Source of the DNA: a virus
Lineage: Duplodnaviria; Caudoviricetes
Reading direction: 5' to 3' (one strand)
Length of the DNA stretch: 64,000 nt
IMG/VR virus record: IMGVR_UViG_3300023178_000006
Translations under genes and position numbers: made by a program
Notes under the pieces: model-generated
The model's database searches: none
What the model was told of the DNA's origin: nothing
Seen by the model: only the letters and a program-made list of their open reading frames with translations
Shown: positions 13,795 to 31,449 of the stretch, one piece after another
How the letters are laid out: each line of letters begins with the position of its first letter
Position numbering within the stretch: position 1 is the stretch's first letter

Positions 13795-15123
13795 ATGTCA
13801 AACTATCAACAACTCGTGGAAAAGTGGGAGCCAATTTTAGAGCACGACTCTTTTTCACCAATTAGCGATCAACATAGGAAAGCAGTAACAGCTACTATCC
13901 TAGAGAACACAGAAAGAGCACTTTCTGAAACAGGTGACTTGTCTGCAAACATGACAAGCCTTCTTTCAGAAGCACCTACCAACGATGCTGGTACAGGTGG
14001 TTTCTCTGCAAGTGTATCTCCAGGAAATGCAGCAGCTGGTCCAACAGCTGGTTATGACCCTATCTTGATTTCATTAGTACGTAGAGCTATTCCTAACCTA
14101 ATCGCTTACGATATCTGTGGTGTTCAGCCAATGACTGGCCCAACAGGTTTAATCTTCGCGATGAGAGCACGTTACGGTTCTCAAGGTGGTGCGGAAGCTT
14201 TATATGCTGAAGCCGATACCGACTTTGGTGGTACTGGTACACACGCAAATACTTTGCCAAACGCTAATACAACGCTTATTACAACTGGTACAGGTATGGA
14301 CACAGCAGCGGCTGAAGCTTTAGGCGACGGTCAAGGTACAAACTTCGCAGAAATGGCATTCTCTATTGAGAAAGTTACTGTTGCTGCTAAGACACGTGCT
14401 TTAAAAGCTGAATACACAACTGAACTTGCTCAAGACTTAAGAGCAGTCCACGGCCTAGACGCTGAAACAGAATTGGCTAACATTCTTCAATCTGAAATCT
14501 TAACAGAAATCAACCGTGAAGTTGTTAGAACAATCTACAAAACAGCTGAAGTAGGTGGTGACAATACTGCTGCTTCTGGAGTATTCGACTTAGACGTTGA
14601 TGCAAACGGAAGATGGTCAGTTGAGAAGTTCAAAGGCTTAATGTTCCAAATCGAACAAGAAGCTAACGCTATCGCAAAAGGAACTCGTAGAGGGAAAGGT
14701 AACATCGTTATTTGTTCTTCAGACGTAGCTTCTGCATTGCAAATGGCTGGTGTATTGGATTACGCTCCTGCCTTAAACTCTAACTCTTTAGAAGTTGATG
14801 ACACAGGTAATACTTTTGCTGGTGTTCTTAACGGAAGATTCAGAGTATACGTTGACCCATTCGCAGGCGGCAACTACTTAGTAGTTGGTTATAAGGGTTC
14901 ATCTGCATTTGATGCAGGTTTATTCTACTGCCCATACGTTCCTTTACAAATGGTTCGTGCGGTTGGTGAGAACAGCTTCCAACCAAAAATTGGATTCAAG
15001 ACTCGTTACGGAATGGTTGCAAACCCATTCGCTGAAGGTGACGTTTCTAACCAAGGTTTGGGTGCTCTTACTCAAGACGTCAACAAGTACTACAGAAAAA
15101 TTAGAGTCACAAACTTATTCTAA
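13795..15123 (+). CDS. gp23: major capsid protein gp23
   Basis: GVQPMTGPTGLIFAMR, ELAQDLRAVHGLDAE, FQPKIGFKTRYG. Confidence 0.98.
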   Translation: MSNYQQLVEKWEPILEHDSFSPISDQHRKAVTATILENTERALSETGDLSANMTSLLSEAPTNDAGTGGFSASVSPGNAAAGPTAGYDPILISLVRRAIPNLIAYDICGVQPMTGPTGLIFAMRARYGSQGGAEALYAEADTDFGGTGTHANTLPNANTTLITTGTGMDTAAAEALGDGQGTNFAEMAFSIEKVTVAAKTRALKAEYTTELAQDLRAVHGLDAETELANILQSEILTEINREVVRTIYKTAEVGGDNTAASGVFDLDVDANGRWSVEKFKGLMFQIEQEANAIAKGTRRGKGNIVICSSDVASALQMAGVLDYAPALNSNSLEVDDTGNTFAGVLNGRFRVYVDPFAGGNYLVVGYKGSSAFDAGLFYCPYVPLQMVRAVGENSFQPKIGFKTRYGMVANPFAEGDVSNQGLGALTQDVNKYYRKIRVTNLF

Positions 15124-16925: not shown

Positions 16926-17089
16926 TATATACTTATACGTTCCATTGCAGTTCTATAACCATTTTTACGAACTCCACTTTCAAACATAATTGCTTCTTTC
17001 ATGAATGTGAATACGTATTCCGCTTTGAGTACGTCATCAGCATCTTTAACGATTACTTTAAATGCATTTTCTTTCTTATTCTTCTTCAT
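16925..17089 (-). CDS. hypothetical protein
   Basis: Start moved to ATG at 17089 (MKKNKKENAF) with GAGGA upstream. Confidence 0.55.
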   Translation of the reverse strand: MKKNKKENAFKVIVKDADDVLKAEYVFTFMKEAIMFESGVRKNGYRTAMERISI

Positions 17090-17819
17090 TATCTTTCCTC
17101 GTGATGTATAACAACCAATAAGAATGACTTGGTCTAGCATTCTTGAGTAGATGGTCTTGCCACATGAACAATCCATCAACCTCTCCAAACTGACTTCGTG
17201 TACGTACCTCGTGACGAGGTGAATCAACGAAGTGATTCAAAAAGTTATCTCTAAAATGAAAGAAGTCCTTTAAACCACCAGGTGTTGCTTGAGTATGAAC
17301 TTCAACCACCATGTGCTTAACATTGTTGAGCATATAATCAAGGTTCTCTTCTGTAAATACATCGTATTCAGCACCTTCAATATCTGCTTTAAGGTAGTCA
17401 ATATAATCTATATCATACCTTTCAACGAGTTGTTTAAAAGAAATCTTATCGATATCTTCATTAGTTGTTTCATCATGAATAGTTTTGTATACACCATCAG
17501 CAGAACCAATAATTGCATTAATAGGAAATACAATAGGGTCTGGTTCGTTCATCATAAACTCAGATACATTATCAATAGCGCATTTGAGTAGGTGTCTGTT
17601 ACCTTCAACCATGTAAACTTTAGATGCACCACCATCACATGCTAGTGCTGAGAACATACCAACACAAGCACCAAGGTCAACTACTACATCACCAGGTTGT
17701 ACTTTATACCACCATTCATATTCTTTTTCTTGAAAGAATTCAGTATAAAAAACTGATATCATCTCAGATACCAGTCCGCCCATATTCATAACTTGATTGA
17801 GCGCCTTTTTTCTAATCAT
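17076..17819 (-). CDS. FkbM-family methyltransferase
   Basis: VVVDLGACVG SAM motif, LKADIEGAE, VVEVH. Confidence 0.85.
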   Translation of the reverse strand: MIRKKALNQVMNMGGLVSEMISVFYTEFFQEKEYEWWYKVQPGDVVVDLGACVGMFSALACDGGASKVYMVEGNRHLLKCAIDNVSEFMMNEPDPIVFPINAIIGSADGVYKTIHDETTNEDIDKISFKQLVERYDIDYIDYLKADIEGAEYDVFTEENLDYMLNNVKHMVVEVHTQATPGGLKDFFHFRDNFLNHFVDSPRHEVRTRSQFGEVDGLFMWQDHLLKNARPSHSYWLLYITRKDNEEE

Positions 17820-19980: not shown

Positions 19981-20279
19981 TAAGCAACCTCTCTATAACC
20001 AGCAGCTTTACCATAAAAGCCAAGTTTTTCTAATTTTAAAACAATTTCGTTAAAAGCCGCACCTTCAGAATCTTGCGGATAGATACCCACTGTCATTGGG
20101 TCATCAATGAATAATTGACATTGTTCCCAAGTTGGGTTTTGATTGATATAATCGTTGATGATTTTCTTTCCTTTTTCAAAAAGATTCTCATCTCTAGTTC
20201 TGACCTCAAAGTCAGTGATTTCATAACCGTCCATAGTCAAAGATGGTTCCGGTTGGTTTCCTAATATTCTTATTTCCAT
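19980..20279 (-). CDS. hypothetical early protein
   Basis: AAGGAG SD after early promoter. Confidence 0.7.
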   Translation of the reverse strand: MEIRILGNQPEPSLTMDGYEITDFEVRTRDENLFEKGKKIINDYINQNPTWEQCQLFIDDPMTVGIYPQDSEGAAFNEIVLKLEKLGFYGKAAGYREVA

Positions 20280-20496: not shown

Positions 20497-20504
20497 TATA
20501 AATA
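20497..20504 (+). promoter_or_regulatory. T4-type late promoter heading the curli/cyclase island
   Basis: TATAAATA 46 nt before the first + strand ORF. Confidence 0.75.
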
Positions 20505-20549: not shown

Positions 20550-20846
20550 ATGGAATCAGTACTACAATTAATATCCGAGCTAGGTTTACCTATTGCTGGT
20601 GCATTAATTATGGGATTCTTCATCTTCATTATTATTAAACAAATTTTTGAAGGAATCATTGATAGCATTAATACTTTAAATATGTTCTGTGAAAGCCTAG
20701 AGAATAGAGCGAGAACTATGTCTAATGAGGTAGTTAAAATCGATTTGCTCGTGTCTAGCGCACTTGGATTAAATCCCGACATCGAGCGTATAGCTCGGGC
20801 AGAAAATTTTATTGAAGACGGAAAACTCGACGTAAGGAGAGACTAA
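20550..20846 (+). CDS. membrane protein with C-terminal coiled coil (paralogue of 21048)
   Basis: LISELGLPIAGALIMGFFIFIII hydrophobic N-terminus. Confidence 0.7.
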   Translation: MESVLQLISELGLPIAGALIMGFFIFIIIKQIFEGIIDSINTLNMFCESLENRARTMSNEVVKIDLLVSSALGLNPDIERIARAENFIEDGKLDVRRD

Positions 20847-21061
20847 TGCTATTTTGTGGTTATCACTTCAGTTTAAGTGCTGGAGGGGATTTACTGATTT
20901 TTGACGAAGGTGACGGAGAGTTAACCTTAGAAAAGTTTGAGTGGAAACCTGGTGATGAATTCATCGCTTCTCAAACTGAAAATGGTGCTGTAACACTTAG
21001 AAGAAAAGCAGACAGAATATATAATCCAAAACAACTGGATTTATTCGATGGAAGAATTTGA
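20846..21061 (+). CDS. hypothetical protein
   Basis: WKPGDEF motif; coupled at both ends. Confidence 0.6.
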   Translation: MLFCGYHFSLSAGGDLLIFDEGDGELTLEKFEWKPGDEFIASQTENGAVTLRRKADRIYNPKQLDLFDGRI

Positions 21062-21332
21062 TATTATAACACTCGTTAGTGAGTACGGGTTTCCTACAAT
21101 TATGGTGATTGGGTTAGGATATTTCGTGTACTTTGTTTATAACTTTATACAAGAGAATATTTTACCAACAATCGATAAAATGCATTTTCAATTAATCAAA
21201 GTGATTGATAGAATGAGAATGCTAGACCAGGATTTAATTAGACTGCAAGAGAAGGTAGACGTAGTTTTAAAATATAAAGAAAATGAGAAACTGAGAGAGG
21301 CAGGTGAAAAACATGATAAAAAAGATAATTGA
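21048..21332 (+). CDS. membrane protein with C-terminal coiled coil (paralogue of 20550)
   Basis: LVSEYGFPTIMVIGLGYFVYFVY N-terminus. Confidence 0.7.
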   Translation: MEEFDIITLVSEYGFPTIMVIGLGYFVYFVYNFIQENILPTIDKMHFQLIKVIDRMRMLDQDLIRLQEKVDVVLKYKENEKLREAGEKHDKKDN

Positions 21333-21819
21333 TGTAATTTTATTATCCGTTCTAACAATTGGTATTGCAAATGCTGAGCCTATTGTTCACAAATTCAAAA
21401 ATCCTAGTTTCAGTGGTGTTGGAACAGGTGCTCATTATCTCACTATTGAGAATCAAGAACATTCACGTAAGAAAGCAATCAAAGATGCATTAGATGCAGC
21501 CGAGAGAGCAGCACAACGAGAAATTGATAATTCAACATTATCAAAATTTATACGAAATTTAGAGAGTAGGATTTACGCTCAGTTAGCAAAACAATTAGTA
21601 GACAATATGTTTTCTAACGACGACCCTGTAAGATTTGGGTCCTTTGTTTTAGAAGGGTCAACAGTTACATATGAAGTTATTACAAACGCTGACGGAACAG
21701 AATTTATTAAAATGACAATTGTAGATGAAGATGGTACTACAACTGTTATTGAAATACCAATTGGTTCAGGTAACTTTGGAAGTGATGGAGATACTGGTGG
21801 GGATGGTGACGGTGGCTAA
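21313..21819 (+). CDS. csgF: curli assembly protein CsgF
   Basis: Signal peptide ending ANA, then IVHKFKNPSFSG (CsgF NPSFGG motif); C-terminal G-x-F...D..GTTTVIEIP; start moved to ATG 21313 (AGGTGA SD). Confidence 0.8.
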   Translation: MIKKIIDVILLSVLTIGIANAEPIVHKFKNPSFSGVGTGAHYLTIENQEHSRKKAIKDALDAAERAAQREIDNSTLSKFIRNLESRIYAQLAKQLVDNMFSNDDPVRFGSFVLEGSTVTYEVITNADGTEFIKMTIVDEDGTTTVIEIPIGSGNFGSDGDTGGDGDGG

Positions 21820-22780
21820 ACTTTTATCCGCTGTATTTTTATCACTATTATTAGCAAGTTGTGCACAGATGCCACAATGGTCTGAAGGACCAGCATATTG
21901 TGAGTATGGTGAAGGAAGATATGCACAAGGATTTAATACCGATTTTGATAATGATGGTATTATAAATGATGATGCTTTAAGTGTTGGAAAACAACTATAT
22001 ACTGGTACTCGTAAGTATATTGAAACAAAACAAATATGTGTTGAGGCACCACAAGTTGTAAGGTTACCATCATATATTGATTTGCTTAATTTACCACCTG
22101 CTAAAAATAAGCCTGTGGTTGCTGTATATCAATTCCAAGATAAAACAGGACAACGTAAAGATTCAGTTACAGGGCAAAGTTTCTCCACTGCGGTAACACA
22201 AGGTGGAACAGAATTATTAATTGACGCACTCAAAACCGCAGGTGATGGTACATGGTTTAGAGTAGTAGAAAGACAAGGTATTGATGCTTTAGTAAGAGAA
22301 CGACAAATTATTCGTTCGGGCAGAGATGAAGCTGCAAAAGCATTAGATGTTGAACCACAAAAATTAGGACCACTTTTATTTGCAGGTATGATAATCGAAG
22401 GTGGTATTATTGGATATGATAGTAATATACAAACTGGTGGACGAGGAGCAAGAACTCTTGGGATTGGATTTAGTAAATCATACAGACAAGACCAAGTCAC
22501 TGTTTCTTTAAGAGCAGTATCTGTTCTCACTGGTGAAGTACTATTAAATGTTCAAACTAAAAAGACAATTTTAAGTTATGGTTCCGGAGGAGATGTATTT
22601 AGATTCATAGAGCAAGGAACGCAATTGATAGAATATGAAGACGGTGTAGGAAATAATGAAAGTGTGACATACGCAGTACGAACAGCAATTGAAGCTGCCG
22701 TATTGGAAATGGTTTATCAAGGTAATCGTCGTGGATACTGGGAGATAGACTGGAATAAAAATGAAGAGGAAAAAGAATGA
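21812..22780 (+). CDS. csgG: curli secretion channel lipoprotein CsgG
   Basis: GTG start at 21812, lipobox LLASC; VAVYQFQDKTGQRK, FSTAVTQG, WFRVVERQGIDALVRERQIIR, IEGGIIGYD. Confidence 0.92.
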   Translation: MAKLLSAVFLSLLLASCAQMPQWSEGPAYCEYGEGRYAQGFNTDFDNDGIINDDALSVGKQLYTGTRKYIETKQICVEAPQVVRLPSYIDLLNLPPAKNKPVVAVYQFQDKTGQRKDSVTGQSFSTAVTQGGTELLIDALKTAGDGTWFRVVERQGIDALVRERQIIRSGRDEAAKALDVEPQKLGPLLFAGMIIEGGIIGYDSNIQTGGRGARTLGIGFSKSYRQDQVTVSLRAVSVLTGEVLLNVQTKKTILSYGSGGDVFRFIEQGTQLIEYEDGVGNNESVTYAVRTAIEAAVLEMVYQGNRRGYWEIDWNKNEEEKE

Positions 22781-23511
22781 ATAAAAAACTTTTAGGCCTA
22801 AGTTTAGCTTTTATTATGATTCCATTTTTAACATTTGCTCAAGCAACTGATGATAACGAAATCAACATCGAACAGGATGGTGATACTCTTACTTTGTATA
22901 TCGACCAATACGGTTACGGTAACAAAATTGGAGCTGATGATTTTAGTTCATCTTCAAGTGCTATGGTTATAACTGGTTCATCTGTAAATATGAACATTGA
23001 CCAAATTGGTAACTCAAACTTATTATTTGGTCCATTAATTGCAGATAGCTATGTTCTGAATCTATTATTTACTGGTGACAGTAACTCTTGGGATTGGGAT
23101 ATCGGTTATGTTGGTTCTTCAGATAGTTCTACAATGGATGTAGATATTACTGGTGATTCTAACACTATGGATTTTGACCAAGGATACAATGCAAGTGCGG
23201 AAAGATTGGATTTTGATTTAACAGTTATTGGAGACAGTAACATTTTTGATGTTGACATTGACGTTGACGACGCAGTTTGGAATTTCGATATTACTGGTGG
23301 AAGCAACAATATCAATACATTACAAAAGGACGGAGCGGAGCATGAGATTAACTTGACTCACGTAGGTTCTTCTGCTGATATTGATATTAACCAAATCAGT
23401 GGTACATGTCCTACAGGTGTTTCTACTTGTAATGGCATAATTACGTTGGATGTCGATAGTGAAAATGCAACAATTCAGATTAATCAAAAAGATTCATCTA
23501 ACGATTCTTAG
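22777..23511 (+). CDS. secreted curlin-like beta-solenoid repeat protein 1
   Basis: Signal peptide (AQA); about 16 strands with x-I-x-Q-x-G and G-D-S-N turns; C-terminal Cys pair. Confidence 0.65.
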   Translation: MNKKLLGLSLAFIMIPFLTFAQATDDNEINIEQDGDTLTLYIDQYGYGNKIGADDFSSSSSAMVITGSSVNMNIDQIGNSNLLFGPLIADSYVLNLLFTGDSNSWDWDIGYVGSSDSSTMDVDITGDSNTMDFDQGYNASAERLDFDLTVIGDSNIFDVDIDVDDAVWNFDITGGSNNINTLQKDGAEHEINLTHVGSSADIDINQISGTCPTGVSTCNGIITLDVDSENATIQINQKDSSNDS

Positions 23512-24619
23512 CGCATTTCTTTTATTACTACCATTGGGTCTGTCTGCAGCAGACTCAATCGGTAGTATAATTGAACACAAGGGAAGTGCTTCACTTACTC
23601 GTGAACAGGGTGAAGAGCTTGTCGTGAGTGGTTCATTTATACCAGAAGTTGAAATGAACGACACGGCCGAAACAGAAAACGGTCGAATGCTTATCGAATT
23701 CTTAGATAAAGCAGAACTCAGTCTTACAGAAAACACAAAAGTATACATTGATAGAGTATACTACGACCCAGACCCAAGCAAATCAAAAATGGCAATGAGA
23801 ATGGCAATGGGAACTGCAAGGTTCGCATCAGGTCGTTTGGGTATGGTCAACAAAAATAATATAGACATACAAACACCCACAGCTACCATATCAGTTCGTG
23901 GAACAGATTTTACAACAACCATAGATGAATTAGGAAGGTCACTGGTGATACTTTTACCAGACCAATATGGTAATCCATCTGGCACAATAGAAGTTTCAAA
24001 TTTAGGTGGTACGATTGTCTTAGAAGAGGCTTACGCGGCCACTATGGTATCTACATTAGATAGTCCACCGACTCCTAAAGTACAAATAACTAATATAACA
24101 CCAGCGATGATTGATAACATGTTTATCGTTTCTCCTCCACCTGAAGTGAAAGAAGCAATTGACGAAGAAATGCAAGATGACGCAAATGAAGACCAAGGAT
24201 TACTTGACATCGACTTTTTAGAATTCAATGAATTAGAAAAAGATTATCTTGAAGATGACGCATTAGAATTTACTGAACTAGACATTGATTTTCTTGATGT
24301 TGATTTCTTAACAGACGTTTTAGATGTCGTTGAAGAATTAATTAAAACAACTGCAGCACTTGATGATAGAGCTATCTCAGGTACATCTTTAGGAGCTCAA
24401 CTTAAAGGTGCAGCATTTGGACTTAATGCTGATTCTCAATATAATATTTACGAAGACAGTGGTAAGATTATATTTTATAGAAACGTAGAAGGTACGATAC
24501 AACTCGCATTTGCGGTAGATGCTTCAGTTAAAATCGATACTGAAGTGGACGGATATTCTGGTATCATTGACTTGAACCAAGGTCAAGATTCTGTAATAGT
24601 AATTAAACAAGGTGGATAA
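23450..24619 (+). CDS. periplasmic FecR-domain protein with acidic C-terminal region
   Basis: Signal peptide; IGSIIEHKGSA..NDTAET..IEFLD..LSLTENT..G..RFASG..TPTATISVRGTDF; start uncertain (23450 or 23465). Confidence 0.8.
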   Translation: MSIVKMQQFRLIKKIHLTILSAFLLLLPLGLSAADSIGSIIEHKGSASLTREQGEELVVSGSFIPEVEMNDTAETENGRMLIEFLDKAELSLTENTKVYIDRVYYDPDPSKSKMAMRMAMGTARFASGRLGMVNKNNIDIQTPTATISVRGTDFTTTIDELGRSLVILLPDQYGNPSGTIEVSNLGGTIVLEEAYAATMVSTLDSPPTPKVQITNITPAMIDNMFIVSPPPEVKEAIDEEMQDDANEDQGLLDIDFLEFNELEKDYLEDDALEFTELDIDFLDVDFLTDVLDVVEELIKTTAALDDRAISGTSLGAQLKGAAFGLNADSQYNIYEDSGKIIFYRNVEGTIQLAFAVDASVKIDTEVDGYSGIIDLNQGQDSVIVIKQGG

Positions 24620-24627
24620 ATAATAAA

Positions 24628-24852
24628 ATGGAAAAAGAAATACTTAAAATAATTGCAAATCGATGTGATTGCTCTTTAGAAGAAGTCACAAACGAAAAAC
24701 ATATCGTAGATGATTTAAACGCGGATTCATTAAGTGTAGTAGAAATCATTATGGACTTAGAAGCCGAATTTAATATTCAAATTACTGATGAAGAAGCCGA
24801 AGAATTATTAACAGTAAAACAGATTAAAGAATATGTCGAGGTGAATACCTAA
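24628..24852 (+). CDS. acpP: acyl carrier protein
   Basis: DDLNADSLSVVEIIMDLEAEFNIQITDEEAE with DSL phosphopantetheine site. Confidence 0.93.
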   Translation: MEKEILKIIANRCDCSLEEVTNEKHIVDDLNADSLSVVEIIMDLEAEFNIQITDEEAEELLTVKQIKEYVEVNT

Positions 24853-25226
24853 TGGCAAGTATACATTATCTCAAAAGAACAGCTGGTGAAGCGGTCGTAA
24901 AGATTTACGAAACAAGTAGCAGCGGCGATACAATAGAATTAGATATTGCTAATTTAATTTCAGATGGTCAAACATTTGATGCTAATTCAGCTAACGTCAC
25001 AATTAAAGAAATCTTTTGGGGTGTAAAACATAACCACTATATTGACGTATCTCGTAAAGAACGAGGTGGTTCTAATGTTCATGGTCATTATTATTTAGTC
25101 AATGCAGGTTCATATGATTACGATGGATTTGTAGATGATGTATATTCAGAAAGAAACATACAAGTATTACTTGATGGACCTGGTCATGTCATACTTAAAT
25201 TAAATAAAACAGCTGGTTATAGTTGA
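24852..25226 (+). CDS. hypothetical protein (possibly virion-associated)
   Basis: 124 aa, beta-rich, no signal peptide, coupled at both ends. Confidence 0.6.
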   Translation: MASIHYLKRTAGEAVVKIYETSSSGDTIELDIANLISDGQTFDANSANVTIKEIFWGVKHNHYIDVSRKERGGSNVHGHYYLVNAGSYDYDGFVDDVYSERNIQVLLDGPGHVILKLNKTAGYS

Positions 25227-25963
25227 TGGACGAATTTGATAGAAAATTAGATAAATGGTTATTAGGTTTCAGTTGGTGCCTATTGGGAATGTATTTTCTT
25301 TTGGCAACTGGTAAAGCTTATGCAGATAATGTTATAACCATTGAACAAACTGGTGATAATTTAAATTTAGAGATTCAGCAATATGGTGCTGATAACGAAA
25401 TTAAAATGTTAGACCAATATTCGTATATTAACGCGTCATCGTTAGATTTATTAGTTGTTCAATATAATACTGCAGGTAATGATAACACAATAGTATTTGA
25501 TGAAATCAGTGGAACAGGTAACGAATTTAAATTGGGTCAAGGTGTTGCTTTTGATAACACCACACAAGGTTGGAACTATGATGGTGCCGAAGGCGGTGGT
25601 CATTATATGGAAATAGATTTATATGGTAATGATAACTTTGTTGAATGGCATCAAACAAATCAAAGTGATGCAACTGACGGACATGATTTTAACTTACATG
25701 TTGCTGGGTCTGATAATTGGATAGATGGAAGACAACAATCTTCAGGCGCAAAAGAAGCAAACATTACACTTTATAATTCAGACAACGTTTTAACATTTAG
25801 ACAGAAAGGAGCTAACGCAACTCACTCAGCAAATATTACCTTAGATGGTATTTACGGAACGACAGCAACTATTAGACAAAATAGCACAACCAATCAAACA
25901 TACAATTTATCAGTGGATTGTTATACAGTTGGTGGTTGCTCAGTGAATGTGCTACAAGAATAA
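25223..25963 (+). CDS. secreted curlin-like beta-solenoid repeat protein 2
   Basis: Signal peptide (AYA); repeats DNVITIEQTG, NLEIQQYG, NDNFVEWHQ, SDNWIDGRQ, SDNVLTFRQ; C-terminal Cys pair. Confidence 0.7.
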   Translation: MMDEFDRKLDKWLLGFSWCLLGMYFLLATGKAYADNVITIEQTGDNLNLEIQQYGADNEIKMLDQYSYINASSLDLLVVQYNTAGNDNTIVFDEISGTGNEFKLGQGVAFDNTTQGWNYDGAEGGGHYMEIDLYGNDNFVEWHQTNQSDATDGHDFNLHVAGSDNWIDGRQQSSGAKEANITLYNSDNVLTFRQKGANATHSANITLDGIYGTTATIRQNSTTNQTYNLSVDCYTVGGCSVNVLQE

Positions 25964-26277
25964 TGCAAGAGTTAGATGATTTTGGAAATCCAGTAGGAAC
26001 ATTATATCCGGGTGATGAAGGTTGCCCTCAAGATATGATTTGTTTAACCGAAGAAGGATTTAACCAAATGCTTTCTGAAGCTGATATGTATTATAATACA
26101 GAAACATTCCAAGTTGAGCCGATGGGCGATGCTGAAGCAATTATAGATTTCACAACGGATTTATTGTTCTTGGATATTTGGACTATTTTAAATATGGCAG
26201 TACCATTAACAATTTTCGCAGTATATGGTTTAACATTATATGCAGCAGTAAAGTATATCCAAAAGAAGTTTAGTTAA
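25963..26277 (+). CDS. membrane protein
   Basis: Start moved to TAATG-coupled ATG 25963; acidic N-terminus, C-terminal hydrophobic helix. Confidence 0.6.
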   Translation: MQELDDFGNPVGTLYPGDEGCPQDMICLTEEGFNQMLSEADMYYNTETFQVEPMGDAEAIIDFTTDLLFLDIWTILNMAVPLTIFAVYGLTLYAAVKYIQKKFS

Positions 26278-26278
26278 A

Positions 26279-28321
26279 ATGAAATGGTTAACAAAGTGGT
26301 GGACGGTATTATTCACCATTGCTGGTTTTTCAGCGTTACAAATATCAAACCCAAATTTTATTCAAAGTATAGAGTATTCTTATTATGACTATCTCCATTC
26401 AAAAAAGGAAAAAATTGCGTCGGAGGATATCGTCCTCGTCAACATTGACGAAAGAGCTATCAGAGCACAAGGCCAATATCCTTGGCCTAGGGGGAACATT
26501 GCTGATTTCATTAATGCTGGTCCTGCTGATTCTCTTTATGTCTTAAACATAATATATTCTGAAGAAGATAGATTTGGTGAAGATAACGAACTTGCAGAAG
26601 CACTGGCCAATAGAGCTGTTGTATTATCATCAGCACCCACACAACAAACATCTGGTGGAATAGGAACCTTTGTAGGTGTTGCCACTTTTGGAGAACAAGA
26701 TGAAAATTGGTTGTATGAATTTCCAGGCCTTTTGTACCCTATTGAATCTCTTTCTAATTGGGTTTTTGGTGTTGGGGCCACCGTTGCTATTCCTGATGAA
26801 CCAACAGGTGTCGTGCGAAGAGCACCCCTCGTTGTTAAAGCAGCCGGGAATCCTTATCCATCTCTCGCCCTTGACACACTACGAGTGTACACCGGAGAAC
26901 CAAGCTATCAAATGAAAGTAGGCACCAATGGTGTCGAATGGATTCGCATGGGTCGACAAGACCCAATCACTACAAACTCCTTCGCAGAAGTCCCTATAGC
27001 TTTCTGGAATGAATTCGAACAAGTCAGTATATTAGACCCATTACCCGAAGGTAAAGTTTTAATCTTTGGTATTACAGCTGAAGGATATGCTAATCCAGTT
27101 GCAACCCCATTGGGTGCAGTGTATCCCCACGAAGTTCAAGGTCATTTAATTCAGACCGTTCTTTCAGGAGTCGAAATACAGATTCCCGACTGGAAGCCAA
27201 TAGCCGAGCTCGGTCTTCTGGTGTTATTGAGTCTAGGTATCCTTGGAGCGGTCTATATCTTGCCCATAACTCTTGGGGTGATAAAGAGTCTAATTCTGAT
27301 TTGCGGTTCTTATGGAGTATCATTGTATCTCTGGAATGATGCTTTAATCTTTGTTGACGCGACCTTAAGTTCATTTGCTTCCTTAGTAGTTTTTGCCCAA
27401 TCAAGTTTTAACAAGTATTTTATCACATTTTTAGAGAAACGTCAACTAGCAAAACAGTTCGCTGGTTATGCTTCTCCTACAGTCGTTCGTTTACTCCAAG
27501 AGAATCCTTCTCTCGTTAAAGAGGGAATGAAAAAAGAAATTAGTATTTGTTTTTCTGATTTAAGAGGATTTACACCACTGGGTGAAAGCTTCGGAGATGA
27601 CGTACAAGGATTAACGAAGTTAATGAATGGGTATATGGATTCAATCACTGAGCCTGTCCTTAACGCTGATGGAATGATTATAAAGTATATAGGCGATGCT
27701 TCGATGCACATACACAATGCGCCTATTGACGACCCTGAACATCCTAAAACTGCAGTACAAACTGGAATCAATATGCTAAGGAGTGTAGAAAAATTCAATG
27801 AAAAGATTACAGCAGAAGGTCGACCACCAATTGGCATGGGGGCTGGGATTAACACTGGTCTTGGTTATCTTGGTGAGATGGGTTCTACAGAACGACACAG
27901 TTATGATGTACTTGGTGACAGCGTTTCAACTGCTGCACGAATTGAGTCAAAATGTAAAGAATATGGTTGCTTATTATTAGTTGGCGAAGAAACAGTTAAA
28001 CGATGTTCTCCTAATGATTTCTTTTTCCTTAAAGTAGACGACCTTGCAGTAAAAGGAAAAACAGTAGGAATTGGAATATACACAGTATTAGACCTTGATA
28101 AGAATAAATATATTAAACCGGCCGAGATGCATGAAGCAATGCATCAGAATTACCGTAAACAAAACTTCGATAAAGCTATTAAAATATGTAACGACCTTAT
28201 GGAATGTTTTGAAGGTCAGATGGAAGGTTACTACAAGATGTGGATTGAGCGTTGCGAATATATGAAAACGCAAGATTTACCGAAGGATTGGAACGGTGTC
28301 TTTATTGCTACGACTAAATAA
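26279..28321 (+). CDS. CHASE2-domain class III adenylate/guanylate cyclase
   Basis: TM + CHASE2 (IVLVNIDE..YPWPRG, GVVRRAPL, YPHEVQG) + 3 TM + FSDLRGFT, KYIGDA, GINTG, YDVLGDSVSTAARIES. Confidence 0.92.
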   Translation: MKWLTKWWTVLFTIAGFSALQISNPNFIQSIEYSYYDYLHSKKEKIASEDIVLVNIDERAIRAQGQYPWPRGNIADFINAGPADSLYVLNIIYSEEDRFGEDNELAEALANRAVVLSSAPTQQTSGGIGTFVGVATFGEQDENWLYEFPGLLYPIESLSNWVFGVGATVAIPDEPTGVVRRAPLVVKAAGNPYPSLALDTLRVYTGEPSYQMKVGTNGVEWIRMGRQDPITTNSFAEVPIAFWNEFEQVSILDPLPEGKVLIFGITAEGYANPVATPLGAVYPHEVQGHLIQTVLSGVEIQIPDWKPIAELGLLVLLSLGILGAVYILPITLGVIKSLILICGSYGVSLYLWNDALIFVDATLSSFASLVVFAQSSFNKYFITFLEKRQLAKQFAGYASPTVVRLLQENPSLVKEGMKKEISICFSDLRGFTPLGESFGDDVQGLTKLMNGYMDSITEPVLNADGMIIKYIGDASMHIHNAPIDDPEHPKTAVQTGINMLRSVEKFNEKITAEGRPPIGMGAGINTGLGYLGEMGSTERHSYDVLGDSVSTAARIESKCKEYGCLLLVGEETVKRCSPNDFFFLKVDDLAVKGKTVGIGIYTVLDLDKNKYIKPAEMHEAMHQNYRKQNFDKAIKICNDLMECFEGQMEGYYKMWIERCEYMKTQDLPKDWNGVFIATTK

Positions 28322-28967
28322 GTTATTAATTGGAGTTCTTTTATTAGCACTTCCAGCTGAAGCTTACATACCAAAACAAAAATTTTATCCAACTTACGTT
28401 GACCCTGCAATGATTGCAAAATTCAAAGCAGGTCATACCGCACCTTATGATGACGCATATGTTCGTCGAGTTGTTGTAGGTAAAGCTCGAATAATGGAAA
28501 ACGGTGCTATTATTACTTTACCACACGGACCAGAACTTGTTCCTCCTCTAAAAGATTTAATGCATCACCCAAAGTTTAAGGAAAAGAAACCAACCCCACA
28601 ATTCTCAGAAAATAGTATAAATTTAAATCTTGACATGTCCTCTCCAGAATTTTATTGGAATGAAAGAGAAAAAAGATGGATTGATTTATTCTTTTGGACC
28701 ACACAGATACTCGATGTATATTCAACTTATAAAGGTATGAAGTATTCTTGTTTAACTGAAGCGAATCCTTTATTACCTGAAGTTCCAGAAGTACATGAAA
28801 TGGTCGGTTTAAAGTTAGGTGTTATTGGTGGAATAAAATTTGTTTTAGATGGTGATGATACCTTTTGGTATGATTGGAAATTAGGTGCAGGCGTTTCAAC
28901 TGGACTTGTTGTAGCAAATAATTTTAGATTAATTAATAAAGCCGAGAGACAGTGCGAAAAAAGATAA
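28296..28967 (+). CDS. secreted/membrane hypothetical protein
   Basis: Signal-like N-terminus; C-terminal hydrophobic region with DVYSTY..EANPL; start uncertain. Confidence 0.55.
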   Translation: MSLLLRLNKLLIGVLLLALPAEAYIPKQKFYPTYVDPAMIAKFKAGHTAPYDDAYVRRVVVGKARIMENGAIITLPHGPELVPPLKDLMHHPKFKEKKPTPQFSENSINLNLDMSSPEFYWNEREKRWIDLFFWTTQILDVYSTYKGMKYSCLTEANPLLPEVPEVHEMVGLKLGVIGGIKFVLDGDDTFWYDWKLGAGVSTGLVVANNFRLINKAERQCEKR

Positions 28968-28987
28968 GGGAGCCTTTCGACTCCCTT
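28957..28987 (-). terminator. intrinsic terminator at the strand switch
   Basis: - strand AAGGGAGTC-GAAA-GGCTCCCTT-ATC-T6. Confidence 0.8.
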
Positions 28988-29011
28988 GTGTTCTGTGATT
29001 GCAGATAAAGT

Positions 29012-29128
29012 TTAGACAATGGTACTTATGCTATAAACCATCATTCCTAAAAAGATTGTGGTTAATAAGCACTCAACACAAAGCTCCCCATTTACACGCA
29101 ACCACACTTTTTGTGCCATTGCTTTCAT
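29012..29128 (-). CDS. 38-aa membrane microprotein
   Basis: MKAMAQKVW..., AAGGGA SD, hydrophobic C-half. Confidence 0.55.
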   Translation of the reverse strand: MKAMAQKVWLRVNGELCVECLLTTIFLGMMVYSISTIV

Positions 29129-29138
29129 AACAGTTCCC

Positions 29139-29267
29139 TTATTTGTTGTGTTTTTGTTTTTGAACTTCAGAGAGGTAGTTAGCAACTCTGATATCCCACA
29201 TTGGAGCATACTTTAAAAAAAGGTATGATATAAACAGACCGAAAGGTATAATAAAAAATAGTTCCAT
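29139..29267 (-). CDS. 42-aa membrane microprotein (not in ORF track)
   Basis: MELFFIIPFGLFISYLFLKYAPMWDIRVANYLSEVQKQKHNK. Confidence 0.5.
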   Translation of the reverse strand: MELFFIIPFGLFISYLFLKYAPMWDIRVANYLSEVQKQKHNK

Positions 29268-29348
29268 TATCTACCCGGATGCCATGGTTGTACCCAATAT
29301 TTAAAGAACGTTCTAGTCCAACCACGGGTGAAGAACCTTTTTAACGCT

Positions 29349-29438
29349 TTAAACATTGGGATTTACTCCCATTAATGAAATGCAAAAAATACCAACGAGA
29401 ACAAACAGTTCAACTCGTTCTTGCATCTTTTCTTTCAT
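29349..29438 (-). CDS. 29-aa membrane microprotein (not in ORF track)
   Basis: MKEKMQERVELFVLVGIFCISLMGVNPNV, TAATG-coupled. Confidence 0.5.
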   Translation of the reverse strand: MKEKMQERVELFVLVGIFCISLMGVNPNV

Positions 29439-29692
29439 TATTCTCCTTTAGGACAATTACTTCTAAAGATATACTGAGATGCTATTCTAGCTTCCTTTTT
29501 ATCTAAATAAGAATCCTTGTTCTTATCGGCTGCTTTAAATAATCCATTCTTAACGGTACATCCCGCAGCTTTGAGTTCGGCTTTGCTGATTAGTTTGTCA
29601 CCATCCAAATCGAATCGTTCCATCCTCCAGTCAGCATACGCTGGAGCAGCAATAAAGCATGCTGCTATCGCTATCATAATTTTCTTATTCAT
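29438..29692 (-). CDS. secreted EF-hand protein
   Basis: Signal peptide (AYA); DLDGDKLISKAE and DKNKDSYLDKKE loops. Confidence 0.8.
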   Translation of the reverse strand: MNKKIMIAIAACFIAAPAYADWRMERFDLDGDKLISKAELKAAGCTVKNGLFKAADKNKDSYLDKKEARIASQYIFRSNCPKGE

Positions 29693-29713
29693 TATATTCC
29701 AAGGTTGTGGATG

Positions 29714-29896
29714 TTATACTATGAAGTATTGAATCAGCGCCATACTACCTAGCATAAAACCAAGTACTAATACTTGGATAATCGATGCATAAGCAACTTG
29801 TTTCATTGGGTGGATTTCAACTAATTTTTCTACGACACTCTCACCAGGTGAAAGATTCGCGATTTTTAGTGCTGTTTCTTTTTTCAATTCGAACAT
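29714..29896 (-). CDS. small membrane protein
   Basis: C-terminal hydrophobic helix. Confidence 0.55.
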   Translation of the reverse strand: MFELKKETALKIANLSPGESVVEKLVEIHPMKQVAYASIIQVLVLGFMLGSMALIQYFIV

Positions 29897-30291: not shown

Positions 30292-31449
30292 CTATACTCC
30301 TATTGTAGATGATTCATAAACTGAGTTATGTGTTTGAGTACAACGAACAAACGTTGCACACTTATTTAAATGTTTAAGCTTTGCGGCCCCTGCATATGTA
30401 CATGCACTACGTAAGCCACCTAAAATATCATTAATAGTATTTTGTACAGCACCTCTATAAGGAACTCTTACTGTACGACCTTCACTCGCTCTATACTCTT
30501 TTAATCCACCAAAGTGTTTATCATTAGCAGATTTAGAACTCATACCATAAAACTCTACAAATTGTTTCTCAATACGTTTACCAATCCCCGCGGACGTAGC
30601 GGGCGCCTGCACGTTTGAAATAATAGATTCAGTAATTACATTACCACCACCTTCATCATGTCCTGCGAGCATTCCACCCAACATTACAAAATCTGCTCCT
30701 GCGGCAAATGCTTTACATACATCACCAGGATTAGTACACCCACCGTCAGCAATGATATGTCCTCCAAGACCATGCGCCGCGTCAGCACACTCGATGACCG
30801 CAGAGAGTTGAGGGTAACCCACCCCAGTCTGAATACGAGTAGTACATACACTCCCAGGACCAATGCCGACTTTAACGATATCTGCTCCACTTAAAATTAA
30901 CTCCTCTGTCATTTCTTTTGTTACTACGTTACCAGCAATAATGACGATGTTTGGTGCCTTTTCTCTGAGGGTTGCGATGAAATCTCTAAATCTACTACTA
31001 TATCCATTTGCAACATCTACACAGACATACTTAATCGACTCTCTATTGTATGTGTAAACCTTAATGAATTTAGTTAAATCTTCATCACTAATGCCCATGC
31101 TATATGCTACAAATTCAGTACGAAGAATTTGGTCGTCATTATAGAATGCAATCAATTCATCTTCACTATATGTTTTCACTAGAGTGGTAAACAATCCTTG
31201 TTTCGAAAGAGTGTCAGCCATTTCCATCGTTCCTACTCCGTCCATATTGGCAGCCATAATAGGAATACCATAATAGTGCGGAGTTTCTCCAGACGCGCGG
31301 ATAGATTCTATCGACATTTCTGGTGGTTCATAATTACGAAAAGTAAATCCACGATATAAATCTACTTCTTTACGACTTCCAAGTGTTGACCGTTTTGGTT
31401 GAATTAAAACATCCTTATAGTCAAGCTTTATTTCGTTATCAATTCTCAA
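30292..31449 (-). CDS. guaC: GMP reductase
   Basis: [46 protein letters not shown]. Confidence 0.93.

Follow-up and report, generated by a model that had tools for sequence, protein, structure and literature searches.

Curli-type (type VIII) secretion regions have been described in pelagiphages and methylophages. The available sections of three papers on the viral T8SS (Zaragoza-Solas et al. 2020, PMC7029224; Buchholz et al. 2022, PMC9004378; Wittmers et al. 2022, PMC9599517) give the gene order 'HK'-CsgF-CsgG-CsgA/B-FecR-(CsgA/B)-adenylate cyclase, and they take FecR as an iron regulator and the small upstream proteins as histidine kinases. For pelagiphages, the cluster reads CsgF-CsgG-CsgA/B-FecR-CsgA/B-cyclase in the available part of Wittmers et al., where the whole block is reported to have moved as one unit between myo- and podoviruses, and where FecR and the cyclase are sometimes missing from phage curli regions. 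Bacterial neighborhoods of FecR and CHASE2 genes are also known. The clr-cyaD1-smc02177-smc02178 locus of S. meliloti is described along with the CHASE2 receptor adenylate cyclases CyaD1, CyaD2, and CyaK (PMC5498481). As in the phage cluster, a CHASE2 class III cyclase adjoins an exported FecR-domain protein; the S. meliloti locus differs in including the Crp-like receptor Clr and in being without curli genes. CyaD1 becomes constitutive once CHASE2 is deleted, and CHASE2 is therefore an inhibitory sensor in this organism, since its deletion yields constitutive cAMP. The FecR-domain gene smc02177 is dispensable for plant-signal perception by the CHASE2 cyclases and is instead a cAMP-Clr target (PMC5498481). 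In Burkholderia and P. aeruginosa, the 'BiofilmReg' operon combines a LysM-FecR gene (COG4254) with a CHASE2 histidine kinase (PMC5192318). It shares with the phage an exported FecR-domain gene directly 5' of a TM-CHASE2-3TM sensor gene, but its output is a histidine kinase and response regulator, its FecR protein carries LysM, and it has no curli genes.

How does the phage locus studied here compare with these systems? The window that we analyzed, 64,000 nucleotides in full, encodes terminase, sheath, portal, scaffold, major head protein, and RNR and is a T4-like phage. The source of the cluster is an uncultured T4-like myophage, marine or coastal, with its nearest major head proteins in Sinorhizobium phages (65%) and then in Melnitz (62.5%). 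Almost certainly, the cluster is a new member of the curli (type VIII secretion) module already described in phages, FecR and adenylate cyclase included. Pelagibacter phage HTVC008M and Methylophilales phage Melnitz, both lytic, cultured, and T4-like as well, carry these genes in this order behind the two small paralogues, and the GenBank record of Melnitz annotates the cluster. The window clade differs in having acyl carrier protein (ACP), 124-aa, 119-aa, and 71-aa open reading frames (ORFs) inside the cluster and a 223-aa gene 3' of the cyclase. An earlier note on this DNA knew of no described phage system with this combination; the cluster itself is already known, having been published in 2022 in the part of Wittmers et al. 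cited above (PMC9599517). In the available parts of PMC7029224, PMC9004378, and PMC9599517, CHASE2 is not mentioned, and we encountered neither the Asp/Ser active-site pair nor a sensor/output swap. Added here are the bacterial background of the FecR-CHASE2 pair, a FecR protein without iron-relay parts, Asp543/Ser550, the swap of the cyclase output half, and a late-promoter motif. The same note linked FecR and the cyclase to the csg genes, and this linkage recurs in relatives: CsgF, CsgG, curlin, and FecR lie beside the cyclase in 36/36 IMG/VR loci with full upstream flank (8 kb), as well as in Melnitz and HTVC008M.

The operon occupies positions 20550 to 28967 on the + strand, as do all of the genes described below. 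A T4-type late-promoter motif, TATAAATA (20497 to 20504, + strand), lies 46 nt 5' of its first gene. The motif has six matches in the window, five of them on the + strand, and all five lie just 5' of late genes (sheath, the 10803 gene, the 11993 gene, and the major head protein) or of this operon. Since the total count of six is no higher than chance, the late-promoter argument is one of placement only. Two small membrane paralogues (both phrog_18771) come early in the operon: a 98-aa protein with an N-terminal hydrophobic helix and no Pfam match (20550 to 20846) and a 94-aa protein (21048 to 21332), whose nearest named Atlas cluster is YvrJ (0.88; a lead only). Our data give no support to the published histidine kinase label for these proteins. 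Between them lies the 71-aa ORF (20846 to 21061), which has a weak AbrB/MazE-like match (E 1e-4, below the Pfam cutoff) and is limited to the closest relatives (5 loci).

The placement of FecR between CsgG and the second curlin-like gene, as described in the earlier note, stands; three genes that it did not list lie between FecR and the cyclase. These encode ACP (24628 to 24852; PF00550, E 1.6e-10; DSL motif present), the 124-aa protein (24852 to 25226), and the 119-aa protein (25918 to 26277), which has a C-terminal membrane anchor and occurs in close relatives only. The ACP gene is a local insertion found in a single one of 76 phage loci (L003). The 124-aa ORF, likewise a local insertion, belongs to a viral hypothetical-protein family (its Atlas clusters are 95 to 100% viral) and was present in none of the loci fetched. 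Nor does the cyclase close the operon, as had been thought. Its stop is overlapped by the gene for the 223-aa exported/membrane protein (28296 to 28967), the final operon gene in this clade, and a terminator-like GC-rich hairpin follows (28966 to 28987; 9-bp stem, scored on the - strand, nearly palindromic). Metatranscriptome contigs from four libraries, which cannot prove transcription, map to parts of the operon, with the best coverage over the first curlin-repeat gene and thin coverage over FecR and the cyclase.

The fibre-export genes comprise a CsgF-like protein with a signal peptide (21304 to 21819; PF10614, E 1.5e-16) and the CsgG outer-membrane lipoprotein pore (21803 to 22780; PF03783, E 4.5e-56). 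The CsgG ORF opens at 21725, and 21803 is the likely start, yielding the lipobox LLASC. Two curlin-like proteins, each with a signal peptide and a C-terminal Cys pair, are encoded at 22777 to 23511 and at 25223 to 25963. The first has a weak curlin-repeat match (Curlin_rpt, E 1.5e-3) and is homologous to bacterial curlin-operon proteins, and its HMM matches curlin genes beside csgG. Most phage loci retain the second, placed after FecR, and the HMM of this protein cross-matches bacterial curlin-operon proteins. The phage set shares with canonical enterobacterial curli (csgBAC-csgDEFG) the CsgG lipoprotein pore, an N-terminal NPxFxG-type motif in CsgF, and secreted curlin-repeat proteins. It differs in that its curlin-like proteins are very divergent and terminate in a Cys pair, in an additional ∼75-aa N-terminal segment of CsgG, and in that the ORFs of the operon yielded no match to CsgE, CsgC, or CsgD.

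The exported FecR-domain protein (23450 to 24619; PF04773, E 2.8e-9; phrog_37870, E 2.8e-68) consists of an N-terminal signal-peptide-like segment, a FecR beta fold (∼185 aa), an acidic linker with DxDFL-like repeats, and a small C-terminal beta domain. Its structure model has a pLDDT of >80 over residues 1 to 185 of the mature protein. The fold matches PupR CCSSD (6ovk), BDI_1681 (4m0h), and residues 112 to 237 of E. coli FecR, and this periplasmic beta fold is what it shares with the FecR/PupR anti-sigma regulators (Foldseek E 2.8e-5; TM 0.55 by target). The analogy with a relay of the E. coli FecA-FecR-FecI type is not supported. The phage protein has no cytoplasmic anti-sigma domain, and neither an ECF sigma factor (FecI) nor an STN-domain TonB-dependent transducer (FecA) was found to accompany it; the protein therefore stands outside the FecR/PupR signaling family. 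It does not qualify as a classical iron relay, and our data do not support the published reading of FecR as an iron regulator.

The receptor cyclase (26279 to 28321; CHASE2 E 1.4e-28, Guanylate_cyc E 2.6e-16) has an N-terminal TM segment, a periplasmic CHASE2 domain (residues ∼24 to 310), three TM segments (312 to 373), a class III domain (416 to 605), and a conserved 75-aa C-terminal extension. Pfam thus confirmed the earlier domain calls (CsgF, CsgG, FecR, CHASE2, and Guanylate_cyc), and the TM-CHASE2-3TM topology was also borne out. The cyclase is 52% identical to that of Melnitz and 33% identical to that of HTVC008M.

In bacteria, a FecR-domain ORF (E < 1e-10) was found within 10 kb in 26/80 CHASE2-cyclase loci and, in 9 of those 26, directly upstream on the same strand. 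CsgG, CsgF, and curlin were found in 0/80 of these loci, and FecR or a close cyclase homologue was found in 0/14 true bacterial csgG loci. A FecR-centered scan recovered the full module solely on contigs bearing the phage-specific small paralogues, most of which carry further phage genes of the window too. The FecR-domain protein and CHASE2 cyclase thus form a gene pair of bacteria, chiefly alphaproteobacteria, and this pair is never beside csg genes in the cells surveyed; the full cluster was found on phage-like contigs alone. The closest cellular homologues of the phage pair are alphaproteobacterial, the class to which S. meliloti belongs. The module unites two gene sets that lie apart in bacteria, a csgF-csgG-curlin fibre-export set and a FecR-CHASE2 cyclase pair.

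On the basis of these results, we propose that the operon would be transcribed late, from the T4-type late promoter, and that the infected cell would acquire an outer-membrane CsgG/CsgF pore through which the two curlin-like proteins may be exported. The periplasmic FecR-like protein would be a partner or ligand-presenting subunit of CHASE2, such that envelope or fibre-export status could set the output of the cyclase, cytoplasmic cAMP or a related cyclic nucleotide. The targets of this output would lie in the host, because five related phage records yielded no cNMP-binding protein. We give this reading as a whole, module identity included, a probability of about 0.55. That FecR and CHASE2 function as a pair has about an even chance. 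The recurrence of the two as bacterial neighbors makes a partnership plausible, and the divergence of CHASE2 follows that of FecR best (r 0.85; partial r 0.67 given CsgG), a correlation that physical linkage and shared descent can explain. A complex prediction for CHASE2 with the FecR domain scored 0.01, which decides neither way. That either the curli pore or the fibre is coupled to this pair is doubtful, as the pair is never found with curli genes in bacteria and its ancestry does not imply such coupling. The direction from pore or fibre through FecR to CHASE2 is one that we only infer, and outputs on lysis timing and cAMP-CRP are speculation.

One potential alternative is that the FecR/CHASE2 cyclase pair has no functional tie to the curli genes, both being late accessory genes for the envelope that simply share a locus. 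In that case, the cyclase would be a host-takeover enzyme raising cAMP on a periplasmic cue unrelated to the fibre, and curli alone would serve aggregation or superinfection defense. The absence of linkage in the bacteria surveyed and the dispensability of the S. meliloti FecR-domain gene for signal perception (PMC5498481) are consistent with this, as are the inversion of the csg-FecR block relative to the cyclase in three phage loci (L020, L022, and L023), the exchange of the cyclase output half separately from the remainder, and the phage curli regions that lack FecR and cyclase in the available part of PMC9599517. However, FecR is kept between both curlin genes across phages at only ∼35% protein identity, all parts are retained in every full-flank locus, and the same part of PMC9599517 reports transfer of the block as a unit. 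We regard independence as possible but rather doubtful.

The proposed cyclase output would also fail if the enzyme were catalytically impaired and served as a scaffold or sensor producing no cAMP. Asp543 and Ser550 are present in 72/76 phage cyclases, in contrast to Ser/Thr and the catalytic Asn at these positions in 80/80 bacterial homologues, and alignment to solved cyclases confirmed that Ser550 replaces this transition-state Asn. In mammalian cyclases, kcat falls strongly when this Asn is replaced. Ser at this position could therefore mean low or altered cyclase activity. However, the other canonical residues (D427, D473, K469, and R554) are in place, and the two metal Asp residues show no variation, nor do the Lys, the Arg, or the KGK motif. 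The catalytic half is also under much stronger constraint than the sensor half (∼83% versus ∼36% identity between phages), and it has been swapped in some phage lineages independently of the remainder. This is the pattern of a working rather than a decaying active site, and impairment is unlikely.

A further alternative, that CsgG/CsgF are a repurposed lysis-timing pore (pinholin- or secretin-like) tuned by the cyclase and FecR, follows a proposal made for Melnitz in the available part of PMC9004378. A late-promoter motif precedes the operon, and the module never occurs without its two conserved small single-pass membrane paralogues; the 98-aa protein adjoins it in every phage locus, either 5' of csgF or inverted 3' of the cyclase. 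Yet the basis of this proposal is synteny only, no lysis gene was identified among the operon genes, and two conserved curlin-like secreted proteins with signal peptides argue for genuine cargo export. A lysis pore is therefore distinctly improbable, and export through the CsgG/CsgF pore is the reading that we prefer.

Finally, homologous clusters turn up in MAGs assigned to many different phyla, but host DNA fused to phage DNA through misassembly or binning has almost no chance of explaining the cluster and is ruled out because HTVC008M and Melnitz, lytic phages in culture with complete genome sequences, both contain it. All such MAG contigs bear the phage-specific small paralogues, and most of those with enough flank bear other phage genes of the window. 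The phage context of the earlier note is therefore upheld, with phage genes bordering the cluster at both ends and base composition even over the region.

The window encodes a large terminase subunit, tail sheath, portal, scaffold, major head protein, primase and ribonucleotide reductase, and is part of a T4-like myophage genome; the GC content of the window is even, at ~0.36. The operon runs from 20550 to 28967 on the + strand between two leftward blocks, one ending at 20279 and the other starting near 29000. Gene identities were assigned with Pfam and PHROG, and the locations of the products were assigned from hydropathy and N-terminal sequences. Two small membrane proteins of family phrog_18771, each with one N-terminal membrane helix, are encoded by gene 1 (98 aa; 20550-20846) and gene 3 (94 aa; 21048-21332), on either side of a 71-aa ORF that matches AbrB/MazE weakly. 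CsgF (gene 4), CsgG (gene 5), the first curlin-repeat protein (gene 6) and the FecR-domain protein (gene 7) follow. CsgF, the curlin-repeat protein and the FecR-domain protein carry signal peptides, and CsgG has a lipobox if its start is taken as 21803. An acyl carrier protein gene and a 124-aa ORF (genes 8 and 9; 24628-25226) are inserted between the FecR gene and that of the second curlin-like protein (gene 10; signal peptide). After a 119-aa ORF (gene 11) comes the gene for the CHASE2 and class III cyclase protein (gene 12; 26279-28321), and the last gene encodes a 223-aa protein with a signal peptide. Nearly all module products were thus placed in the envelope. Pfam searches with the 98-, 94-, 124-, 119- and 223-aa ORFs returned sub-threshold matches only.

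The csgF, csgG, curlin, FecR and cyclase calls that an earlier note had made from the sequence alone were borne out by Pfam, and hydropathy agrees with its TM-CHASE2-3TM-cyclase layout. The FecR and cyclase genes are interleaved with the curli genes, as it had described, but three further genes separate FecR from the cyclase. The cyclase gene, which it had taken to close the operon, does not do so; the 223-aa gene and a hairpin at the operon end (28966-28987) come after it. Canonical enterobacterial curli has the CsgE gate, the CsgC chaperone and the CsgD regulator, whereas none of these Pfam families was found among the operon ORFs; Wittmers et al. 2022 (PMC9599517) likewise found them missing.

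The acyl carrier protein has an intact DSL motif and, among 76 phage loci, has a counterpart only in locus L003; no operon gene accounts for its presence. The 124-aa viral hypothetical gene has a counterpart in none of these loci. The region is flanked by an FkbM-type methyltransferase gene (17076-17819, - strand) and an IMPDH/GMP-reductase family gene (30292-31449, - strand). The major head protein (13795-15123) is nearest to those of Sinorhizobium phages phiN3, phiM7, phiM12 and phiM19 (65%), next to that of Stenotrophomonas phage DLP_6 (64%), with the cultured Methylophilales phage Melnitz slightly behind (62.5%). The protein cluster of the window cyclase also occurs on a 200-kb contig, so the phage may exceed the 140-147 kb of pelagimyophages.

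Is this combination of genes maintained in related phages? A scan of IMG/VR with the cyclase as the query yielded 74 loci. Of these, 36 include the complete 8-kb upstream flank, and in every one the cyclase adjoins CsgF, CsgG, the first curlin gene and FecR; in 3 of the 36 the csg-FecR block is inverted relative to the cyclase. In the window and the phage loci, csgF and csgG are adjacent and are followed by a curlin-repeat gene; in the window, the FecR-domain gene comes after this first curlin gene, together with the second curlin gene and the adenylate cyclase. The module has the same gene order as the window in two cultured lytic phages, Melnitz and the Pelagibacter phage HTVC008M, and GenBank annotates the Melnitz genes in this way. 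These relatives were found by protein-level searches only; at the nucleotide level, the 8.5-kb region had no megablast match among cultured phages. The co-occurrence of FecR and cyclase with csg genes described in the earlier note extends to relatives of the phage, and the reading of the locus as a host chimera is rejected by the same cluster in 36 of 36 full-flank loci and in both cultured phages. Cyclase homologues number thousands in marine metagenomes, where these phage clusters of type VIII secretion (T8SS), FecR and cyclase genes are abundant.

To locate the parts in bacteria, three surveys, each with one genome per prokaryote species, were centred on the cyclase, CsgG and FecR, respectively. 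The best 80 bacterial cyclase loci were mostly from Alphaproteobacteria, and their cyclases were 27-33% identical to the query over the full length, including the C-terminal extension. CsgG, CsgF and curlin were found within 10 kb at 0 of these 80 loci. A FecR-domain ORF at E <1e-10 lay within 10 kb at 26 of them, and in 9 of the 26 it was directly upstream of the cyclase on the same strand. The CsgG-centred survey gave 14 true bacterial loci with csgF-csgG-curlin, none of which had FecR or a close cyclase homologue; 7 further matches labelled as metagenome-assembled genomes (MAGs) were phage-type modules with the small paralogues. Every close match in the FecR-centred survey bore the whole phage module, and most matches with enough flank also had other window genes, under MAG labels that span many phyla. 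The MAG hits of the FecR survey are thus phage contigs that ended up in MAG bins. The labels on the module contigs L157-L163 and L178-L190 (Flavobacteriales, Synechococcus, Rhodobacteraceae, Sphingobacteriales, Planctomycetaceae, Saprospirales, Pelagibacter, Luteolibacter, Pirellulales and Legionellales) should not be taken as hosts or bacterial carriers. In cells, then, the curli set is one unit and the pair of FecR and CHASE2 cyclase genes another. Within these surveys they are united only in phages, in agreement with Wittmers et al., who place FecR and the cyclase outside bacterial curli operons (PMC9599517). These data show that the conserved phage module was assembled from two bacterial units.

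The module itself is already published. The earlier note knew of no described phage system with this combination; this statement was wrong, because Wittmers et al. 2022 (PMC9599517) explicitly described the cluster. In the phage-curli literature, csgF/csgG and associated genes are reported in pelagimyophages by Zaragoza-Solas et al. 2020 (PMC7029224), and Buchholz et al. 2022 (PMC9004378) report the Melnitz csg genes and propose a role in lysis timing. Wittmers et al. describe CsgF, CsgG and CsgA/B, then FecR, often a second CsgA/B, and an adenylate cyclase in podo- and myo-pelagiphages, with trees that point to Alphaproteobacteria, and report metatranscriptome matches and the presence of viral curli proteins at each of the 65 GOV2.0 stations (PMC9599517). 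Superinfection defence, sibling capture and import are given there as possible roles. The window locus is another member of this published T8SS-FecR-cyclase module. It appears that these papers do not identify the cyclase as a CHASE2 protein, do not separate the FecR protein from the Fec type, and mention neither the Asp/Ser active site specific to phages nor the exchange between sensor and output. According to the papers, the cultured hosts are without such a secretion system and second-messenger enzyme; infected cells of very abundant marine bacteria gain both from the cluster.

The FecR-domain protein was modeled in its mature form (23549-24616) on 34 phage sequences. The model had a pLDDT >80 for the first ~185 residues, whereas the acidic linker and the C-terminal domain were modeled poorly. 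Fold matches to the confident part are the C-terminal cell-surface signalling domain of PupR (6ovk), the putative anti-sigma factor BDI_1681 (4m0h) and, in E. coli FecR, residues 112-237, so that model and fold search together place a periplasmic FecR-type fold in the protein. The fold search was needed, as the alignment profile found nothing significant in the PDB. A signal-peptide-like segment lies at residues ~11-33, the FecR domain starts at about residue 72, and no N-terminal cytoplasmic anti-sigma domain precedes the membrane segment. The operon encodes no ECF sigma factor and no TonB-dependent transducer with STN. Among five related phage records (three incomplete), STN (PF07660) had no match, and sigma region 2 (PF04542) gave weak matches only, far from the cluster, in two cultured phage genomes. 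The phage protein shares the periplasmic fold of the FecR/PupR anti-sigma regulators but lacks their anti-sigma domain, ECF sigma factor and STN transducer; we therefore reject a classical Fec iron-signalling reading, and nothing ties the protein to iron. It is better read as a putative partner of the CHASE2 sensor than as an iron regulator. Separately, the first ~70 residues of the mature protein match the surface-anchoring domain of a Marinomonas ice-binding adhesin (5ix9), with a TM of 0.76 by target, 22% identity and a profile E of 0.15.

The gene for an exported FecR-domain protein lies close to that of a CHASE2 membrane sensor in the window, at the 26 of 80 bacterial loci and in published cases. 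Burkholderia and P. aeruginosa pair a LysM-FecR protein with a histidine kinase that has CHASE2 (PMC5192318). In the S. meliloti clr-cyaD1-smc02177 system, deletion of CHASE2 makes CyaD1 constitutive, and the FecR-domain gene is a cAMP-Clr target that is not required for signal perception (PMC5498481). Many of the bacterial FecR partners are about 1000-2100 residues long; their FecR domain is close to the N terminus, and cadherin-like, Big_9 or RTX repeats come after it, so that they look like large secreted surface proteins. Examples occur in Bradyrhizobium and other Alphaproteobacteria (bacterial loci L083:4835-9913, L078:2796-6746, L120:3479-9796, L111:6257-9937, L095 and L132).

In the cyclase protein (26279-28321), CHASE2 (PF05226; E 1.4e-28) spans residues 21-319. 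Within the Guanylate_cyc domain, the metal-binding residues D427 and D473 are invariant and K469, R554 and the KGK motif are conserved; K469 and D543 occupy the ATP-specifying positions. The second base-specifying position is Asp in 72 of 76 phage copies and Ser or Thr in all 80 bacterial homologues. In those same 72 copies the position of the transition-state Asn is Ser550, while Asn stands there in 80/80 bacterial homologues, and HMMER alignment to solved cyclases (CyaB 3r5g, 6fht) upheld this register. As judged from these alignments, the active site is shown to be intact but variant.

HTVC008M and two further phage loci, L015 and L075, have the bacterial-type Ser/Asn pair and end without the 75-residue C-terminal extension. 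The catalytic half of HTVC008M shares 64% identity with those of L015/L075, and identity to the bacterial ones is about 52-55%. In CHASE2, by contrast, these copies cluster with different phages of the Asp/Ser type. Between L075 (8001-9815) and the window protein, CHASE2 is 73% identical and the cyclase domain 39%. We conclude that the output half has been exchanged between lineages. Among Asp/Ser-type phages, identity is about 83% in the cyclase domain, about 36% in CHASE2 and about 19% in the membrane segments, compared with 59% for the cyclase domain and 43% for CHASE2 in bacterial homologues. This is the pattern of a constrained, presumably working catalytic domain on a fast-evolving sensor.

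Do the sensor and the FecR protein evolve together? Over 30 loci, CHASE2 distances correlated with those of FecR at r 0.85 and with those of CsgG, CsgF and the curlin gene at 0.70-0.76. The CHASE2-FecR partial correlation given CsgG was 0.67, the highest among the pairs tried, and cyclase domain distances correlated with no partner. These values fit co-divergence of CHASE2 and FecR and lend it weak support, because such correlations can also arise from physical linkage and shared descent. The predicted complex of the CHASE2 periplasmic domain and the FecR domain scored 0.01, which is no verdict either way.

A copy of the T4 late-promoter motif, TATAAATA, is found 46 nt ahead of the first operon gene. 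Each of the other four + strand copies immediately precedes a structural gene: the sheath gene, the major head gene or one of two others. Since TATAAATA is not enriched overall, the argument is one of placement only. In four metatranscriptome libraries, from seawater and salt marsh, contigs, which cannot show strand, ends or true transcription, cover parts of the operon, most consistently the first curlin gene and thinly FecR and the cyclase. In all four, some of the highest-depth contigs matching this region fall on the segment after the operon (28826-29812), which has short ORFs only.

We propose that the operon would be expressed late, that the two curlin-like proteins would be exported through CsgG/CsgF, and that cyclic-nucleotide output would be set jointly by the periplasmic FecR-like protein and the CHASE2 domain. 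The signal would be received by host proteins; we place the receivers there because no cNMP-binding protein (PF00027) was found in five related phage records, three of them incomplete. Of the circuit in the earlier note, from an outer membrane pore or fibre through FecR and CHASE2 to cAMP, the underlying observation and linkage were correct, and parts of the interpretation are plausible. Its weakest step leads from the pore or fibre to FecR; this step is conceivable because bacterial partners fuse the FecR domain to what look like large surface proteins. The findings in S. meliloti speak against FecR as a simple input. It is doubtful, at a probability of roughly 0.15, that the Asp543/Ser550 site changes product or kinetics and that the cyclase and FecR report curli export or surface contact to a late decision, such as lysis timing or superinfection exclusion.

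No phage locus has the module without the small paralogues, which are found ahead of csgF or, in inverted orientation, behind the cyclase. In the window, the two 94-98-aa proteins stand before csgF, where Wittmers et al. 2022 place one or two small "HK" genes. They may be the "histidine kinases" of that paper. A kinase domain is absent from them by Pfam and hydropathy, and 94-98 aa is too short for one. Their nearest Atlas lead is YvrJ (0.88), a match too weak for use.
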